The notes below the pieces were generated by a model. It ran no database searches. It saw only the letters and a program-made list of their open reading frames with translations, and had not been told where the DNA came from. Of a stretch of 32,000 nt of DNA, positions 10,480 through 23,128 are shown piece by piece (position 1 is the first letter of the stretch; every line of letters begins with the position of its first letter). The stretch comes from an archaeon. Lineage in GTDB: Archaea > Asgardarchaeota > Thorarchaeia > Thorarchaeales > Thorarchaeaceae. The position numbers and the translations under genes are program-made. Location of the stretch: contig JAJRZD010000034.1 of NCBI GenBank assembly GCA_024275415.1, positions 48,849-80,848 of the forward strand, read 5' to 3'.

Positions 10480-11242
10480 TCTGCCAATTCCTTTTCCATG
10501 CTCGTGTCCCCTTCGGGATACCTGCAGATGGTTATGTCTGAAGCACAATCTATCTCATTGATTCCGCAGAAAAAAGACCACGTCAAAGGGCGGTATCGTG
10601 AGTTGTTGATTGAACTAATCCCTCACAATACAAAATATCTGAACTTCTTGGATTCCACGGGAGGTGGGGCAATCTCTGGAATCCGTCTATTCTTCTTCGA
10701 CCCCCTCCTTTCCGTTGACTGGGGTTTAATTGAAAGGATTGCGAAGCAGCGGATCACATACCCTATCATTCCGGGACTCCAGTGGTTTGAAATCAATTAA
10801 CTCCTGGTTTTTTACTTTCGATGTAACGCAATCGAATGCGCGGTCGAGGCCATCCATATTCACCAATCCCCTCTTTTGTTCTTGATATTCGTTTCTTCTT
10901 GCTGCGCCTTGCAGGAATTAGTCCAGTGTCTTTTCTCTTTTGCATGTATGTATTGGTGTTCATCGGATCTCGCACCGTTCATCGTCATCTGGTCTCCAGA
11001 GTCTTGCCCTCCCAGAAAACGGCACTGGGAATGACTCTGTGTGGACCGCATCGCCTGTCATTCGACCTTATGTCTTTGTACTGTCCGGTTCCATTTAACC
11101 ACCTGCCACGAGATGTCCAACTCTCACGCAGCTCGTACCAACCCTCCAGATATCATTTGGGCGAGTAGTAACTCCCTCGCACCTCCCAAATCCGACACCC
11201 CACAGCAATGTTAATATTGCATTCATTATTGACTCCTCCTTA

Positions 11243-11404
11243 GCCGCCGTGGCTCAGTAGGTAGATGATACCTATTTTGGTATCAACCGAAAGCGACAGC
11301 CTGTTACCTTTCGGTCAACCAGACTGGGAGCCAGACAGTTGTTGGTCGGAGGTTCGAGAGACCGTCAAATAAAACATAGCGGTCAGAAAACCCTCCCGGC
11401 GGCG
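11243..11404 (+). tRNA. tRNA-Asn(GUU) with three introns (22/23, 37/38, 59/60)
   Basis: Exons 11243-11264, 11292-11306, 11337-11358 and 11391-11404 join to GCCGCCGTGGCTCAGTAGGTAGAGCGACAGCCTGTTAAGTTGTTGGTCGGAGGTTCGAGCCCTCCCGGCGGCG (73 nt). Stems: acceptor GCCGCCG/CGGCGGC, D GCTC/GAGC, anticodon ACAGC/GTTGT around GTT (11303-11305), T GGAGG/CCTCC. Each intron folds as a hairpin with BHB-like geometry. Confidence 0.9.
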
Positions 11405-11521
11405 CTATTCCACTTTGTTTCCATAGTGTGTATCTAGTTTGGGGCCAAACTGGTGGCACTTCTATCTACTGCGCAACCACTCTTGGACAGCCCGTCGCTT
11501 CCTGATATCATTGGGAGGGCA

Positions 11522-14500
11522 TTATATGGCCCAACGAATCGTGTCCTCAAGCGAGTCAGTAGTGGCAATCCAGCAGACTGAAACCCTGTCAGTTCTTGGA
11601 TAGTAAGATACACGTCTAGGAAAGAAGGAAACAGCAAAGCCCAATCCTTCGGCAAGGCGGCACTCGTCTCTGATGAGGTTATTGATTGACATATTCACGA
11701 CGTTAAGGAGGTTTGTGACAGTTTCGGCAATGGCAGGGTCGTTATCTTCCTGCAGTTCCTTAAGCTTATTGATAGACAGGGTGGACTTTGGGATCAAGCC
11801 TCTGATGGTCTTCCCCTCTTTCTTTATGAGTTCAATCTCCTCTTGTCCTATCATCGACTCCATATCATAGTGCTCCTTCTCCATATTGACATGGATGGCA
11901 TGGCTACGAGACCACATGAATCTCCCACGCCCGAAGCTTCCATCTTCGGGAATAAGCTCTTCAAGATAGGCGCGTTTGGACTCGTCTGACCAATCAACAT
12001 ACGTGGGAGGAAGTCCTGGGTTGTTGATGGTTTTGTTACCGGGAGTCATCCCGTCATCCAAAAGAACCAATCCAATCTGGCAATGGATATGAATGTCATA
12101 TTTGCCTTTGCGGTATTTAGGTTCGAGCAAAATAGTCCCAAACTCACTAATGGTATCCTGTACTCTCAGAATCCTTCCCATGTGTGCCTCGTTATACGCA
12201 ATTCGGCCAGTCGGCCATAGATGACAATCACTGATGACCACCGCCGTAAGCCTTGCCTTTAATATTTCAAGTTTTTTTCCTTCAGGAAACCGTGGATTCT
12301 TAATTCCTGCTCGTCCGCTTATTCCTGCTATCTTGACTACTAGTCCTTCGAGATTCGACAATCTTCTTCGGGAGCCATCAAGATACATCCTGATGATTTT
12401 CCCTTCGAGGCGAGTGCTGTAAACGTCGAGAGGTCGTTTCCTTGCGGGTTGTCCCTCGTCGTTATCCATGAACTGTCTGACAATCTCGTTGATGCGTGGC
12501 AAGTCCCTGCGTAGAGTCCCATTGAGTCCTAGTGTCTTCCGCAGTTGGTCGATTATCCTGACGACGTCGCCTCGATGTCTGAAATAGAAGAACTGATCCT
12601 CATAAGGTCGCACGAGTTCATCAGGTCTGTGCATGGGCACCCATGCGTACATCGTGTTCTCGACCAGCGCCAAACGAGCTCGCACATGGACAAGTCCGAG
12701 AGCAGATGAAAGGGAATCCTCTATCCGTTGTTTGTTTGCGCGAAGGTATTGCTCGATCTGCCTGATCCTACCGGTTTCAAGTTCAGGATACAAGATTGCA
12801 CGATAAAACCTCTCATTGACAGTAGGACTGTTTCTTATCATCTCTGCAATCGCAGAAACTAGATTCATCTGAGTGAGTTCTTTCGCGTTTTTGATGGTTT
12901 CAAGGGCATCGTGGACGAGATGTTTCTCTATCGTGTGGGCGGTTAGCGACTCAAAGAGGTCTAGACTTGTGGTGTCATACATTCTTTCGAGGGTGGCTCT
13001 GTCTATCTCTGGGTTGCTCTTCTGCCACCCACTGATGATACATTCTTCCTCATGCTTTCTGAGGTCTTTGATCTGAGCTGGTTCGATGGCATTCCACGAA
13101 TTGGTCACAAATCCCTTGCTGACGCCGTATTTTACCGCAATCTCATCGCGTTTCATGGAATGATCATCTTTGATTTGAAAGTACAGGTTGCTGAACATCT
13201 TCCTTTCCTCAAAGTCCCACCGTTCGCGCTCAGCAGGATGTTTCTTAATCAACCTCTCTACATCTTCCATAGACTCGATTCTGATATCAGGTGGTCCTCC
13301 ATGAACTGTTTCGAACATCCGCCTGAGTTCTCTATCCTGCAACCTCTCTATCAAGTCCGGGGGTTCGACGTTCTTCTTGTCTTTCAGTCTGCAATACTCT
13401 AAAGCATCCTTGTATTGCTCATCAAATCCTTTCTCCGCTTTCAAATCATAGTTCTGCTCAATCGCGCGCTCAAGATTCTTTACACAATGGATTTTCCAAG
13501 GCATAGCTTCGAGTCCTGTTCCCCCCACTGACTTGGAGATAATTCCTTTATCCTTTGACCGGGATACGTACTGACCTATCCCGTTCTGGTCCTGTTTCAT
13601 ATTCCTTATTCGAGAGGGGATGTCCCACCCCCGAAGCCAAAGTACAATCCTGTGGGAGCTGATTTTGTATTTCAGTGCTAGATTATGTATCTGATTCCGG
13701 TCGTAGAGTTCGACACCTTCTCGCACCCGGATTCTAATCTCATCTCTTCTACGCATCCCAATGATATCCAACCATGCCTGTAGATACCCAAGTTCGTCAG
13801 AGAATATCATGTCATCGAAAGCTACTCGGATTTCTTCCAATGACCTAGGATACCGTTGACTCTCGTACTCTCTCGCTGCCTGCATTAACCGATAGCGAAG
13901 CTCCCGCCGTACGATGTCATACACCCCTTCAGGAATCGACTCAAGATTAGCATACTCTTGGACCAGTTCGGGATTCAGCCCAATCTCCTCAGCCAGCTCC
14001 TTGACCTTCGCTTCGCTTTCAACACCTGATGTTTCCTCCGACAGGTGAACCCTGATGGTGATGAACTTGGAAACCAAGTTATCCTCTATCAGATGAGCTA
14101 CCTCATGCTTCTGTAGGATGTCCTCCCAGTCCTCTTGTGACTGTAACTCCGCGATGATCTGACGGATGTGCCGCTCCCTGTCATCTTCTGATAGAGAGTC
14201 CTCTATCTTATCAATCAACTCCCTGACCTTGCGCTCAGCCGCTTCCTCGGACGACTCGGGGATGCAGGAAGCAAGGATATATTCATGGTGCCTTCTTCGT
14301 TCCTGTTTCTTTTTTTCTTCTTGATTATCGAGTTCACTCTCTTCCTGTCGCATCGAATCACTCTGTTCGTACTCGCCCCTTTTCTCAATATTATGCCCCT
14401 TGGTGGTAGTCTGTTTTTTCTGCTCCCTTAGATGAGGGTGTTCGATGTCCACTTCTCCTGTATGATCATGTGGTTCTTCATTTGGATGATGTGTTGTGCC

Positions 14501-15253
14501 TATCCCTTCCACCGCTTCTTTGGAGTGATTATGTCCCTGCTGTTCGGTATCCCCCGTCAGTTTATCCTTTTTTGTAGGCATTTCGTTCTCAAGTACGGAC
14601 TCCGACTTTGTTTTACACGTTCTCGGCTCTCCCTCTTGTACTAAATACAACTGCCCAGTTCCCCCATCATAGGATGAGGTCTTCTCCTCAGTATGGGACT
14701 GTCCCGTGTCCGAGTCCGTGTTGTGTTCGTCCTTTTCCTCTTCAGACTCCTGCTCCTTTTTCTCTGCGTCCTCTGAGAGGGACTCCTCCATCTCGGATAC
14801 ATAGACCCCGCGCCACCGTTCCCTGACCTGCTCAGGGTCGATCCCGAACTCCTCCATCACATCGATGACACGCTGCTCGAACTCATCAAGAAGATCCTTG
14901 TCAGCCGTCCGTTCTCGTTCCTCTCGGGCTTTCTCCCGTCCAATCCCGATCCTTTGTCCCTCTTCCTTCGCCTCTAGCCCCTTCACCGCCTCACGGCCCC
15001 TCTTGCTGTCAGACACAGGTTCCTCGTTCACACGTTGGCCGACCCTCGCTCTTCCCCCATCACCACCATGCTCTTCTGCCTCGTGCCCATCATTGTCCTT
15101 TTGCTCTACTACTTCCTTCTCAGCCACCCTTCGTTCATACTTCTCCCGGAACTCCCTGACACGCCTGCTGATCTCATACTGGTATTCCTCGTATTCGCGG
15201 TCCTCTCGCCACTCGTCGTATTCCCTGCGGCGACTCCGCTCCCCTCCCTCCAT
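11522..15253 (-). CDS. 1243-aa protein: charged low-complexity N-terminus, three HTH-like motifs and a C-terminal LAGLIDADG-like endonuclease domain
   Basis: E/R/K-rich N-terminal region. HTH-like VKELAEEIGLNPELVQEYAN, IHNLALKYKISSHRIVLWLRG and RDEIAVKYGVSKGFVTNSWN. LAGLIDADG-like motifs ARLTAVVISDCH (D1009) and KRAYLEELIPEDGSF (D1104). The ORF itself is secure; the domain calls are by eye. Confidence 0.7.
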   Translation of the reverse strand: MEGGERSRRREYDEWREDREYEEYQYEISRRVREFREKYERRVAEKEVVEQKDNDGHEAEEHGGDGGRARVGQRVNEEPVSDSKRGREAVKGLEAKEEGQRIGIGREKAREERERTADKDLLDEFEQRVIDVMEEFGIDPEQVRERWRGVYVSEMEESLSEDAEKKEQESEEEKDEHNTDSDTGQSHTEEKTSSYDGGTGQLYLVQEGEPRTCKTKSESVLENEMPTKKDKLTGDTEQQGHNHSKEAVEGIGTTHHPNEEPHDHTGEVDIEHPHLREQKKQTTTKGHNIEKRGEYEQSDSMRQEESELDNQEEKKKQERRRHHEYILASCIPESSEEAAERKVRELIDKIEDSLSEDDRERHIRQIIAELQSQEDWEDILQKHEVAHLIEDNLVSKFITIRVHLSEETSGVESEAKVKELAEEIGLNPELVQEYANLESIPEGVYDIVRRELRYRLMQAAREYESQRYPRSLEEIRVAFDDMIFSDELGYLQAWLDIIGMRRRDEIRIRVREGVELYDRNQIHNLALKYKISSHRIVLWLRGWDIPSRIRNMKQDQNGIGQYVSRSKDKGIISKSVGGTGLEAMPWKIHCVKNLERAIEQNYDLKAEKGFDEQYKDALEYCRLKDKKNVEPPDLIERLQDRELRRMFETVHGGPPDIRIESMEDVERLIKKHPAERERWDFEERKMFSNLYFQIKDDHSMKRDEIAVKYGVSKGFVTNSWNAIEPAQIKDLRKHEEECIISGWQKSNPEIDRATLERMYDTTSLDLFESLTAHTIEKHLVHDALETIKNAKELTQMNLVSAIAEMIRNSPTVNERFYRAILYPELETGRIRQIEQYLRANKQRIEDSLSSALGLVHVRARLALVENTMYAWVPMHRPDELVRPYEDQFFYFRHRGDVVRIIDQLRKTLGLNGTLRRDLPRINEIVRQFMDNDEGQPARKRPLDVYSTRLEGKIIRMYLDGSRRRLSNLEGLVVKIAGISGRAGIKNPRFPEGKKLEILKARLTAVVISDCHLWPTGRIAYNEAHMGRILRVQDTISEFGTILLEPKYRKGKYDIHIHCQIGLVLLDDGMTPGNKTINNPGLPPTYVDWSDESKRAYLEELIPEDGSFGRGRFMWSRSHAIHVNMEKEHYDMESMIGQEEIELIKKEGKTIRGLIPKSTLSINKLKELQEDNDPAIAETVTNLLNVVNMSINNLIRDECRLAEGLGFAVSFFPRRVSYYPRTDRVSVCWIATTDSLEDTIRWAI
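11671..11866. repeat. Direct repeat, copy 1 (196 bp, inside the 1243-aa ORF, about residues 1130-1195)
   Basis: Matches 18666-18861 at 194/196 positions (gtttcggcaa vs gtttcagcaa; taagcttatt vs taagcctatt). Confidence 0.97.
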
Positions 15254-15262
15254 CAGCCATCA

Positions 15263-18200
15263 CTACCTGTGGAACTCCAGGAGCCTTGAGATGACCTCTT
15301 TCGAGATGATCCCGTGCTCATTGGGGATGACCGTCCCGATCACCTGGGTCGCCACTTCGATGGTACGGGGGAGCCCTGATGCGCCCACGGCATCGTAGAC
15401 GAGCCCCGCGAAGGCGGCCAAGGCATCTCCTGAGCCTTCATCCAGGAACCTCTGTGCCGCTTCCATGAACTCAGGGTTTGTCAGGTACGCTCCTGTTGGT
15501 GCAATACTTGCCTTTCCCTGTCCTGGGACGTCCGTCCTATCCCTCGTGGCCAACCGTTTCATGAGCCCCTCGGGAAGGGGTTCATGTCGGGCAAGCTGCG
15601 GGTTCGCATCGTAGAAGGCGGACATGTGCGCTCGTATCGCATCACTCCCCAGATGTTCGGTATCTATCTGGTCATGGAACAAGAACGAGAGGGGGATCAT
15701 CTGCACGTTCTTGGGCTCCCGTGCCTCCTCGAGGTACACTACCGCTTCGCCCCGCTCCATCCCCCGGATGTGCTGGATCTGGGCATCGCTGCACCCGATA
15801 TGGCTCCCCAGCATGGCCATCGTTTCCCTGTCTTCCTTCAGTCGATGGAGGACCGCGTTGACAGGGAGCTTCACCACCTCGCTGGCAAGGGCACTGGGCA
15901 ACTGGTCGATGATGACCAGCCCGAGCCCTGTCCCGCCAAGGACCCTGAGCATCTCGACGAATGCATGGACTGCCTGTTGTCGTGCAGCGGAGTTCGCCTC
16001 ACCGTCAAGACTGTTTCTCCCCAGGACATAGTGCGCCTCCTCGAGGACCAGCAGGTTCTCCACCCGCTTGGACGGGTTGGCAAGCTTGTACTCGCTTATT
16101 GCTGCCGTCAGCATCCCCATGAGCAGGGCCGTGTCACTCTGGGACAATGCGTCCATCTCGATGATGGTGGGATGGGAGAGGAGTCCAGGTATCGAGATGC
16201 CCTCTGAGGTGTTGAACATCCCGACCAAAGAGGGCTTCCGCAGGAGCGACCTTACTCTGGCTACCAGTGCCCCGTAGAAGTTCTTGTTCACCTCCTCGTC
16301 GTAGTTCAGCTCCTTGCCGAAGGTGAGGACTCCCTCAACGATGTCCTCAAAGAGGATGGGGTGTCCCCGTTCGCCGGACTCGATGTCCCAGCCGCAGTTG
16401 GCATAGGTTGAGTACACCCAGTCCTCGACGTGCATGGAGATGACCCTGTCATTGGGCAACCAGAGGGTGAGGACCTGTACTACCCTGTCCACCCACTTCC
16501 GCAGTGGGACCTTTGGCGGGGGCTCCCAGAAGTTCAGCTTGAACCCGGCTACAGTATCATCTCCCGCCGTGAAGACCCGGATGCCGGGGAAGACCCTCAT
16601 GAGGGTTCTCCACTCGTACGCCTTCGAGGGGACCAGCACCACAGGGTTCAGCCCCATGCTGATGGCCTGCCCGATGAGGCTCATTGCGCTCCAGGTCTTC
16701 CCTGAGCGGGTGGTCCCAAGGACGAGGAGGTGCCCGTCGTAGTACTGGGTGCCAGAGGTCAGGAACTTCCCTGATAGCACCGTCCCGTTCTCGTCTATCG
16801 GGTTGCCATAGTAGAGGGACCTTGCCCGCCCCTTCCACCGCACGCCCGTCGGGACGTCACATCTGAAGACCTTCCGTTCCTCCTGTGGGCGAGCCTCTTT
16901 AGCAGTGGTCTGGGTCGAGGTGGAGAACCGTTCGCGAGCGGTCACCCTGATCCCCATGTCTGTCTGCGGGAGGACGAGATAGTTCGCCACCTCCCGCAGG
17001 GTCAGTCGTGTGGGGGAACCTATGGGGAACCCGGACAGCAGCCTGTCAAGGTCCTTCTTACGATGGAACGTCCTGACCTTGAAGGGGTCCTGTTCCTGCC
17101 CGGGAGCGACGGAACCCATGATGGCGCTTGCCAGCCTACGGGCAGCCGTATCCGCGCACTCCAGAGTACTGTCGCAAGATGCCACCATGACCGTGGTGTT
17201 GCACAGGTCCCGTTCGTTGAGGCGTTCCAGCTCCCGCGCCAGTCGTGATGCCTTGGCAAGTTCCTTCGGGTCCACTACCCGCTTTGATTCCTGCCTGTCA
17301 CCGTGAAGAAGGCTCGACCGTTCCCGGGTCACGGTGGTCTCTGAGGACTGGACTGCCTTCTTGTACCTGTCCTGCAGGGACGCGACCTCCCTAGTACTGA
17401 CGGTGGTCGGTTCCACGAACACCTGTACCATGGCATTGTCCAGTCCCTGCAGCACGCCAATGGGGGCGGACATGGGTGCCGTGACCTGCTCCTCGCCAGT
17501 GATAGGAGTAGGGATCCCTGAGACCTCCACAGCCACGCAGGCCATGTCCTCTTGAAGGCACAACCCTTCATACCCTTTGACCTTTGTGAGCCTGAACCCC
17601 TTGAGATTGCTCAGGAGGGTGTCTTGCATCAACACCATCTGCACCCCAAGACGCACAGAGTCCTTCGCCCACGTCAGGAACATGACCCTGGTGACAGAGT
17701 CCTTCCGTAAGAACAACAGGCTGAAGGGGACATCACTGGAGCCCAGGTGACGGACGATGTTGAGGAAGCTTGCTGACACGTCCTGTCGGGTCTCCTTCGC
17801 GTCAGCAGGGAACGCATAGTCCCTTGGGATCTCCGTGACCTCGAAGCCCATGATGGGAGGTGGTGCCCGTGAGGGGCGTTTTGGGACACGGAGCGGTGAG
17901 ATGGTCTTCCTGGACGTCGTGACAAGCCCGGGCAAGAGAACCCTCTTTGAACGGGATGTCCGTGAGTCCCAGAGGCAGGTGACGAGGGCCGCCCCGATGC
18001 CGACCACCGCAATAAGCAGGTTCGCAGCATTACCGACCAGCGGTATCGGGATGAAAGAGAGGACTACTACAAGCCCCACCAAGATGGCCCCTGCGGCGAT
18101 CATGGCCCCTGCGAGCAACGAGTAGAGCCATACCCGGGGCTTTCGCCCGAAGAGCAATGCTGTTGCGCCGATGAAGAAGGTGACCGTTGCAAGGAGGGAG

Positions 18201-18346
18201 CTGGGGCTCCCTATCGAGGAAGGGACGAACCTCACAAGGTATAGTAACCACAGGACACAATAGGACGGTATGAAGGTGAGGAGCACCAGGAGGACGAGCT
18301 TGAAGAGCAAGACCACCAGTGAGTTAGGACGATCCGAATCTGTCAA
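15263..18346 (-). CDS. Membrane-anchored HerA/FtsK/VirD4(TrwB)-superfamily ATPase (DUF87-like)
   Basis: About four N-terminal hydrophobic segments. Walker A LVLGTTRSGKT (16694-16717), Walker B LLVLEEAH and a downstream IDQLPS motif. It ends 9 bp before the start of the 1243-aa gene. Sampled 60-nt lines are 57-72% GC against about 40-48% in flanking DNA. Confidence 0.85.
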   Translation of the reverse strand: MTDSDRPNSLVVLLFKLVLLVLLTFIPSYCVLWLLYLVRFVPSSIGSPSSLLATVTFFIGATALLFGRKPRVWLYSLLAGAMIAAGAILVGLVVVLSFIPIPLVGNAANLLIAVVGIGAALVTCLWDSRTSRSKRVLLPGLVTTSRKTISPLRVPKRPSRAPPPIMGFEVTEIPRDYAFPADAKETRQDVSASFLNIVRHLGSSDVPFSLLFLRKDSVTRVMFLTWAKDSVRLGVQMVLMQDTLLSNLKGFRLTKVKGYEGLCLQEDMACVAVEVSGIPTPITGEEQVTAPMSAPIGVLQGLDNAMVQVFVEPTTVSTREVASLQDRYKKAVQSSETTVTRERSSLLHGDRQESKRVVDPKELAKASRLARELERLNERDLCNTTVMVASCDSTLECADTAARRLASAIMGSVAPGQEQDPFKVRTFHRKKDLDRLLSGFPIGSPTRLTLREVANYLVLPQTDMGIRVTARERFSTSTQTTAKEARPQEERKVFRCDVPTGVRWKGRARSLYYGNPIDENGTVLSGKFLTSGTQYYDGHLLVLGTTRSGKTWSAMSLIGQAISMGLNPVVLVPSKAYEWRTLMRVFPGIRVFTAGDDTVAGFKLNFWEPPPKVPLRKWVDRVVQVLTLWLPNDRVISMHVEDWVYSTYANCGWDIESGERGHPILFEDIVEGVLTFGKELNYDEEVNKNFYGALVARVRSLLRKPSLVGMFNTSEGISIPGLLSHPTIIEMDALSQSDTALLMGMLTAAISEYKLANPSKRVENLLVLEEAHYVLGRNSLDGEANSAARQQAVHAFVEMLRVLGGTGLGLVIIDQLPSALASEVVKLPVNAVLHRLKEDRETMAMLGSHIGCSDAQIQHIRGMERGEAVVYLEEAREPKNVQMIPLSFLFHDQIDTEHLGSDAIRAHMSAFYDANPQLARHEPLPEGLMKRLATRDRTDVPGQGKASIAPTGAYLTNPEFMEAAQRFLDEGSGDALAAFAGLVYDAVGASGLPRTIEVATQVIGTVIPNEHGIISKEVISRLLEFHR

Positions 18347-18633: not shown

Positions 18634-19044
18634 CTAAGCGACTACTCTCCAGCCGTACTCATCAGTGATGAGGTTATTGATTGACATATTCACGACGTTA
18701 AGGAGGTTTGTGACAGTTTCAGCAATGGCAGGGTCGTTATCTTCCTGCAGTTCCTTAAGCCTATTGATAGACAGGGTGGACTTTGGGATCAAGCCTCTGA
18801 TGGTCTTCCCCTCTTTCTTTATGAGTTCAATCTCCTCTTGTCCTATCATCGACTCCATATCGGGAAGGTTTTCAGCTGTATCATAGAGATTCCGAGAAGC
18901 TGGTGAGGCGCTACAAGTGCGGGACAAGAGGTCTGGTGACACCAGATGAAAGATAGAATTGATGCTCAAGGCGGTACACAAAACGGAACATGCGACCTTC
19001 CTCTTATGGTTCGATTCACGAGTTTTGCAACAGATTTCGCTCAC
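18634..19044 (-). pseudogene. Orphan fragment of the C-terminal part of the 1243-aa gene
   Basis: About 65 codons nearly identical to the large ORF. The upstream part of the ORF does not look like real protein. Confidence 0.55.
18666..18861. repeat. Direct repeat, copy 2 (196 bp)
   Basis: Same orientation as 11671-11866 and offset by 6,995 bp. On the minus strand it reads DMESMIGQEE...SINNLI and then diverges to TDEYGWRVVA* (stop at 18634). Confidence 0.97.
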
Positions 19045-23021: not shown

Positions 23022-23128
23022 TGGTGGGCCCGGGGCGATTTGAACGCCCGACCGTTCCCCTGCCCGATGGGATTCACCGAGCATACAGGTTATGAGCCTG
23101 CTGCTCTACCAAGCTGAGCTACGGGCCC
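23022..23128 (-). tRNA. tRNA-Ile2(CAU) with a 30-nt intron at 43/44; CCA encoded
   Basis: Reverse strand reads GGGCCCGTAGCTCAGCTTGGTAGAGCAGCAGGCTCATAACCTGT[intron 23084-23055]CGGTCGGGCGTTCAAATCGCCCCGGGCCCACCA. The GGGCCC acceptor stem is typical of archaeal Ile tRNAs and differs from initiator (AGCGGG) and elongator Met (GCC...) tRNAs. Confidence 0.88.

Follow-up and report, generated by a model that had tools for sequence, protein, structure and literature searches.

A three-intron tRNA-Asn(GUU) gene in a Thorarchaeota genome and the variable intron load of its orthologs

The window, i.e. the whole 32,000-nt stretch of DNA analysed here, lies on contig C10 of an assembly of 3.53 Mb (127 contigs, 47% GC, 92.9% complete). 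One window protein and the neighbour protein have their closest relatives in Thorarchaeota MAGs, in line with the Asgard origin proposed in the first-pass annotation, which had read the locus from sequence without database searches. The locus comprises a tRNA-Asn gene, split into four exons by three introns and preceded by a conserved upstream motif, and a long convergent ORF that faces the 3' end of the tRNA gene (Table 1).

Table 1. Features of the tRNA-Asn locus and of its surroundings in the window
Feature	Position	Strand	Length	Description
Promoter motif (putative) CAGCAATGTTAATATTG	11203-11219	+		TATA-like TTAATATT at 11211-11218; motif end 24 nt before the mature 5' end
Exon 1	11243-11264	+	22 nt	tRNA positions 1-22: acceptor 5' strand, U8, D-stem 5' strand, D-loop, G22; conserved in orthologs
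Intron 1	11265-11291	+	27 nt	site 22/23 (D-arm); layout 1+7+6+7+4+2
Exon 2	11292-11306	+	15 nt	positions 23-37: D-stem 3' strand, G26, anticodon stem 5' strand, anticodon GTT, A37
Intron 2	11307-11336	+	30 nt	canonical site 37/38; layout 1+9+5+9+4+2
Exon 3	11337-11358	+	22 nt	positions 38-59: anticodon stem 3' strand, variable loop, T-stem 5' strand, T-loop to G59
Intron 3	11359-11390	+	32 nt	site 59/60 (T-loop); layout 1+6+13+6+4+2
Exon 4	11391-11404	+	14 nt	positions 60-73: C60, T-stem 3' strand, acceptor 3' strand, discriminator G73
T-rich run TTTGTTT	11414-11420	+		possible transcription stop, read from sequence only
Convergent ORF	11525-15253	-	1243 aa	117 nt from its stop codon to the tRNA-Asn 3' end
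Direct repeat, copy 1	11657-11866		210 nt
ORF	15263-18346
Direct repeat, copy 2	18652-18861		210 nt
tRNA-Met(CAT)	23025-23128	-		CCA encoded; single 30-nt intron, layout 1+9+5+9+4+2

Removal of the three introns leaves a product of 73 nt that ARAGORN calls as tRNA-Asn(GTT), with a regular cloverleaf (stems of 7/4/5/5 bp, loops of 7 nt, variable loop of 5 nt). With a D-loop of 8 nt and a variable loop of 5 nt, linear and Sprinzl numbering coincide, which places the introns at 22/23, 37/38 and 59/60. All the universal tRNA bases are present (U8, A14, G18G19, A21, U33, A37, G53, T54T55C56, A58 and C61), together with a G15-C48 pair and a G at the discriminator position (G73, position 11404), an identity element of tRNA-Asn. 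The CCA end, which is encoded in most orthologs, is not encoded here (CTA follows exon 4). The isotype, the normal 73-nt cloverleaf, the intron positions, and the coordinates and lengths of the introns had all been read correctly, to the base, in the first-pass annotation. Upstream of the gene, the motif CAGCAAYSTTAATATTG recurs 24-27 nt 5' of tRNA-Asn in most of the orthologous loci compared, so that the conserved stretch in the window probably acts as the promoter; its short distance to the gene suggests a very short 5' leader. Note that the genome's remaining tRNA genes do not share the CAGCAAYSTTAATATTG type of motif; being specific to the tRNA-Asn locus, it was discarded as a means of finding hidden tRNA genes.

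The three introns were scored in the canonical register of the motif known as bulge-helix-bulge (BHB). Here the last two bases of both exon and intron are skipped, the four that precede them in the exon pair with the four that precede them in the intron, and intron base 2 is the first of the intron hairpin. In this register, each central helix has three pairs out of four: (i) in intron 1, the D-loop GGU pairs with ACC of the intron, next to an A.G mismatch, with an intron stem of 7 bp and an outer helix of 2 bp; (ii) in intron 2, the intron stem has 9 bp and the outer helix, formed by the anticodon stem and beyond, 7 bp, and the central mismatch (U35xC) is retained in most orthologs; (iii) in intron 3, the T-loop UUC pairs with GAA of the intron, the intron stem has 6 bp and the outer helix is the T-stem, of 5 bp. 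None of the introns has the strict hBHBh' motif (a central helix of 4 bp flanked by two bulges of 3 nt, plus both outer helices), owing to the single mismatch in each central helix and, for intron 1, to an outer helix of just 2 bp; all three have the relaxed BHB motif. When each intron was dinucleotide-shuffled 5000 times, the observed combination of central helix and intron stem recurred in a fraction of at most 0.0002. More generally, 55 of 57 ortholog introns (96%) have at least three central pairs in the canonical register, compared to 5-19% when the register is shifted by one to three bases. The cut rule put forward initially, cleavage after the second bulge nucleotide, holds in this scoring and in its shuffle and register controls, and the hairpins that it came with are present, with 7 bp, 8-9 bp including G-U pairs, and 5-6 bp, respectively.

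Thermodynamic folding of the precursor, together with the central mismatches and the 2-bp outer helix of intron 1, counts against splicing at these motifs: the splice-competent structure has an energy of -47.6 kcal/mol, about 18 kcal/mol above the minimum free energy (MFE) structure at -65.2 kcal/mol, the local MFE pairing around 37/38 differs from the splice motif, and the motif of intron 1 competes with the D-stem. Intron 1 is also where a different parsing of a genuine gene would most readily fit, in that one boundary or the intron count could differ from our model, the D-arm insertion being for instance cut at 23/24, cut in another register or, having the weakest motif, removed less efficiently. 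An A follows both junctions of intron 1, making the boundary ambiguous between the 22/23 and 23/24 notations; in the local MFE structure, three D-stem pairs close another possible bulge of 3 nt (GAA); and D-arm insertions have the poorest motifs in a 2026 census of Asgard tRNA introns (bioRxiv 10.64898/2026.10.13.758758). However, the mature product is identical under either notation, all eight 22/23 introns found among the orthologs have at least three central pairs in the canonical register, and a 3' cut placed one base earlier would, by our reasoning, leave an extra A and break the D-stem. The BHB register thus favours 22/23 over 23/24, and we regard a boundary or an intron count other than the one given in Table 1 as very improbable.

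The genome encodes the enzymes that such a precursor would require. The two EndA genes lie on C69 and C117. One EndA paralog, of 190 aa, matches the catalytic chain of the Aeropyrum pernix EndA (3P1Z_B, 1e-43), keeps the Tyr/His/Lys residues and aligns without gaps through the region of the A. pernix L1/CSL loop, with a loop lysine aligned to A. pernix K44. A second paralog, of 213 aa, is without the catalytic His and, since this residue is missing in beta subunits, is beta-like. By these alignments, the genome encodes a heterotetramer-type (alpha/beta) EndA with a broad-specificity L1/CSL loop, an enzyme with which the relaxed motifs of the three introns are consistent. Alpha/beta EndA with an L1 loop has already been reported in Asgard archaea (Kaneta et al. 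2018, PMC5829648). An RtcB ligase is also encoded in the genome.

We then surveyed the orthologs of the gene by a DNA search of 40 relatives followed by spliced alignment. This recovered the tRNA-Asn gene from 19 genomes, all of one family with the window; as in the window, it shares a contig with ProRS in at least 14 of these. These family genes carry zero to four introns distributed over six sites, namely 22/23, 28/29, 37/38, 43/44, 50/51 and 59/60 (Table 2; genomes are denoted by G numbers). Across the orthologs, exons are conserved and introns are present or absent at exact boundaries. More specifically, the 22/23 intron is missing at the exact predicted point in G001, G014, G016, G017 and others, the 37/38 intron in G010 and G017, which both read CTGTTAAGTTGT, and the 59/60 intron in G005, G007, G009, G012, G017 and G022. 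Alleles without one of these introns have their exons joined at the predicted bases, so that each boundary of the window gene is confirmed.

Table 2. Intron sites of tRNA-Asn alleles (each site is denoted by the position preceding the intron)
Intron sites	Genomes
none	G017
43, 59	G010
37, 59	G014, G016
37, 50	G005, G007, G009, G022
37, 43, 59	G011, G018, G024
28, 37, 59	G001
22, 37, 59	window
22, 37, 43, 59	G019
22, 28, 37, 43	G012
22, 28, 37, 59	G003, G006, G013, G020, G023

The sequences of the introns behave differently from one site to another. The 37/38 intron of the window is 73-87% identical to those of the six most similar orthologs, which belong to several genera. The 22/23 and 59/60 introns are no more similar between genomes than shuffled sequences, and those of the window resemble no other intron examined. 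A search of its own genome for copies of the three introns returned no significant match elsewhere (other matches had E values of about 1 or worse). A ProRS tree places the window with the other members of its genus (G001, G003-G006), within which intron patterns vary, and the very close pair G009/G024 has different tRNA-Asn alleles with different promoter-leader sequences. Besides, the 30-nt introns at 43/44 (loci L010-L013, L015 and L017) and at 50/51 (L014 and L018-L020) form a single sequence family: the mean identity between the two groups is 0.68, no lower than within the 43/44 group, versus 0.51 for shuffles. They never occur together in one gene, and the close pair G024/G009 has one each, a pattern that looks like allele replacement or like an intron moved by 7 nt. 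In a different family within the phylum, a hand-parsed tRNA-Asn gene (G033, L021) also has three introns, at 22/23 (15 nt, without an intron hairpin), 37/38 (24 nt) and 49/50 (31 nt), from which it follows that the D-arm site has been reused in a distant lineage by an unrelated intron.

Dead remnants of the gene were observed in three genomes. In G003 (L006, contig C65) and G006 (L007, contig C406), a stump made of the old promoter and the first 19-20 nt of tRNA-Asn lies 145 nt upstream of the working gene, which is complete, with four introns and its own promoter. In G004 (L027, C38:1299-1360), only the stump is left, and the unrelated DNA that follows encodes a secreted repeat-like protein; no integrase-like ORF was found after this stump. 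The breakpoint of the stumps recurs near position 19-20.

Neither ARAGORN nor the Rfam tRNA model sees the unspliced gene, as had been anticipated for default tRNA finders: ARAGORN makes no call, and RF00005 gives no match at the gathering score, nor at E<=10 on a 351-nt slice. For comparison, RF00005 gives 70.1 bits to the intron-less ortholog of G017, identical at 65 of 73 positions, and 37.2 bits to an ortholog with two introns. Over the whole genome, 39 tRNAs are called by ARAGORN, the majority intron-containing and none for Asn, and 31 by Infernal, which implies that a sizeable part of the tRNA set is hidden. For a genome-wide hunt for such genes, BHB geometry by itself has too little specificity. 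The check for another Asn tRNA, suggested at the outset, revealed no second tRNA-Asn in the 92.9%-complete assembly with ARAGORN, Infernal and blastn-short; with the spliced sequence as a blastn-short query, the four exons together matched only at the window locus of their own genome, and no other copy or fragment of the gene was detected in the assembly. As the only tRNA-Asn found, an essential gene, escapes both ARAGORN and the Rfam model, Thorarchaeota MAGs will appear to be devoid of tRNA-Asn. Elsewhere in the window, the intron of the tRNA-Met(CAT) gene interrupts another non-canonical site, 43/44; its ortholog in G016 (L009, 2546-2619) has no intron.

Sequence anatomy, motif register, the intron-less alleles of relatives and the presence of the enzymes, all of them observed directly, are best explained by a tRNA-Asn(GUU) gene that is functional and present once in this Thorarchaeota (Asgard) archaeon, and whose three introns would be spliced out by EndA and whose exons would be joined by RtcB. 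We hold this explanation, single copy included, with high confidence for an assembly of 92.9% completeness. Transcription, cleavage and ligation in the cell, as deduced from sequence, would proceed as follows. Transcription from the conserved promoter would yield a precursor of about 162 nt containing the three introns, each of which would fold with the flanking exon sequence into a bulge-helix-bulge that is slightly relaxed. In it, the four bases of the exon that precede the cut would pair with the four intron bases that precede the 3' cut, with the intron hairpin on the far side. At each of the six sites, the alpha/beta EndA with its L1/CSL loop would then cleave behind the second base of the bulge; ligation of the four exons by RtcB would follow, and the addition of CCA would come last. 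The gene might instead be a decaying or silent tRNA-Asn pseudogene, the working tRNA-Asn being hidden in the unassembled 7% of the genome. The incompleteness of the assembly (92.9%), the dead 5' stumps, which indicate that the locus can break (G003, G004 and G006), and the missing CCA, encoded in most orthologs, would agree with such decay. Against it, the whole exon sequence (73 of 73 positions) fits a perfect cloverleaf in which no conserved base is missing, an intact promoter motif precedes the gene, the splice geometry is kept in all three introns, and there is no further copy or fragment in the assembly; we therefore consider a pseudogene highly improbable. Finally, a chance resemblance, in which non-tRNA DNA would give a cloverleaf after three arbitrary deletions left to the choice of the reader, is effectively refuted by the orthologs, with a conserved ProRS-linked locus in 19 genomes and intron-less alleles, as well as by the shuffle and register controls, and its probability is negligible.

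The convergent ORF downstream of the gene is more unusual than the three-intron gene itself. It has no Pfam match, and a PDB sequence search returned no meaningful match. A structure model of the C-terminal 364 aa (residues 880-1243), built from 21 homologs (pLDDT 89), matches LAGLIDADG homing endonucleases and WhiA (TliVMA intein, 4e-6; I-Tsp061I, 1e-5; and I-DmoI, with TM-scores near 0.6 by target), so that this region can be confidently predicted, from the model, to adopt a two-motif LAGLIDADG homing-endonuclease fold. Of the two acidic residues at the helix ends, one is invariant and the other is present in at least 90% of the rows; an active nuclease and a WhiA-like binder are both candidate roles. 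The family is patchy and multi-copy in Thorarchaeota (loci L083-L112 in family genomes; C118:8850-10958 in the genome of the window): a genome has between 0 and 7 matches, 13 of 31 genomes have none, and fragments are numerous. A tRNA gene lies within about 800 nt of the family gene in at least 13 of 30 loci, the chance expectation being roughly 2% by our own estimate; the neighbours are tRNAs for Asn, Val, Ala, Phe, Pro or Thr, or partial tRNAs, and usually converge on the family gene's 3' end. Note that the two copies of the 210-nt direct repeat (97% identical, 6995 nt apart) are a duplicated piece of the C-terminal coding region of the LAGLIDADG gene and bracket this gene together with the next ORF (Table 1), which suggests insertion or duplication by recombination.

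A broader reading would make the tRNA-Asn locus a hotspot of allele and intron turnover driven by this convergent, free-standing LAGLIDADG-fold gene: breaks or recombination at the tRNA gene would replace whole alleles, including promoter and introns. No association was found between the neighbour gene and particular introns. By a hand tally, a 22/23 or 28/29 intron is present in four alleles with the LAGLIDADG neighbour and absent from four, versus five and seven, respectively, without it. Genomes without any copy of the family still have two to four tRNA-Asn introns, and the tRNAs beside other copies are often intron-less. The proposal that the introns protect the gene against this neighbour finds no support in these three observations. 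We regard turnover driven by the LAGLIDADG-fold gene as unlikely, and treat the link as a lead rather than a result. If true, LAGLIDADG-driven allele replacement would be a route of arrival for Asgard tRNA introns, whose gain, loss and movement are named as an open problem by the 2026 census (bioRxiv 10.64898/2026.10.13.758758). The family thus offers one testable lead on these processes. The orthologs, with zero to four introns at six sites, different alleles in close relatives and dead 5' stumps, constitute a compact natural series in which to study them; the window gene taken alone is an annotation point.

Three introns in one Asgard tRNA had been thought notable when the gene was first read, but multi-intron tRNA genes are already documented in these archaea, so that the novelty of the window gene is low, and sister genomes have four introns in the same gene. 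In Atabeyarchaeia and Freyarchaeia, 92-95% of tRNA genes have introns and over half of those have multiple introns (Valentin-Alvarado et al. 2024, PMC11291895); an October 2026 preprint on 90 Asgard genomes describes up to five introns per gene, repeated gains, no general route of arrival, and D-arm introns missed by tRNAscan-SE (bioRxiv 10.64898/2026.10.13.758758); and Kaneta et al. (2018, PMC5829648) surveyed a Thorarchaeota genome and drew a 'multiple introns' class. Like the window gene, the multi-intron tRNAs of Atabeyarchaeia and Freyarchaeia/Jordiarchaeia (PMC11291895; bioRxiv 10.64898/2026.10.13.758758) have several short (about 20-35 nt) BHB-type introns per gene, at canonical and non-canonical sites; they also share D-arm introns missed by annotators, recurrent gain and loss among relatives, and an alpha/beta EndA. 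The differences are that Thorarchaeota, the lineage of the window, are not named in the main text of the preprint and are not among its three focal families, and that the three introns of the window gene fall below the published Asgard maximum of five. The multi-intron tRNAs of Thermoproteales (Sugahara 2008; Fujishima 2010) are similar in their non-canonical positions, relaxed BHB motifs and alpha/beta EndA with a CSL/L1 loop, with up to three introns per gene. They belong to a different phylum, however, and many of their introns form sequence families common to several tRNA types, whereas the 22/23 and 59/60 introns of the window resemble neither another intron examined nor anything else in their own genome. 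Finally, the pre-tRNA-Glu(UUC) of Methanopyrus kandleri, which contains multiple introns including one in the D-loop, shares with the window gene a D-arm intron with a relaxed HBh'-type motif and a heterotetrameric EndA (PMC5829648). The M. kandleri enzyme is devoid of the L1 loop and cuts such introns poorly (PMC5829648), whereas the EndA alpha subunit encoded in the window genome runs ungapped through the A. pernix loop region and keeps the lysine.
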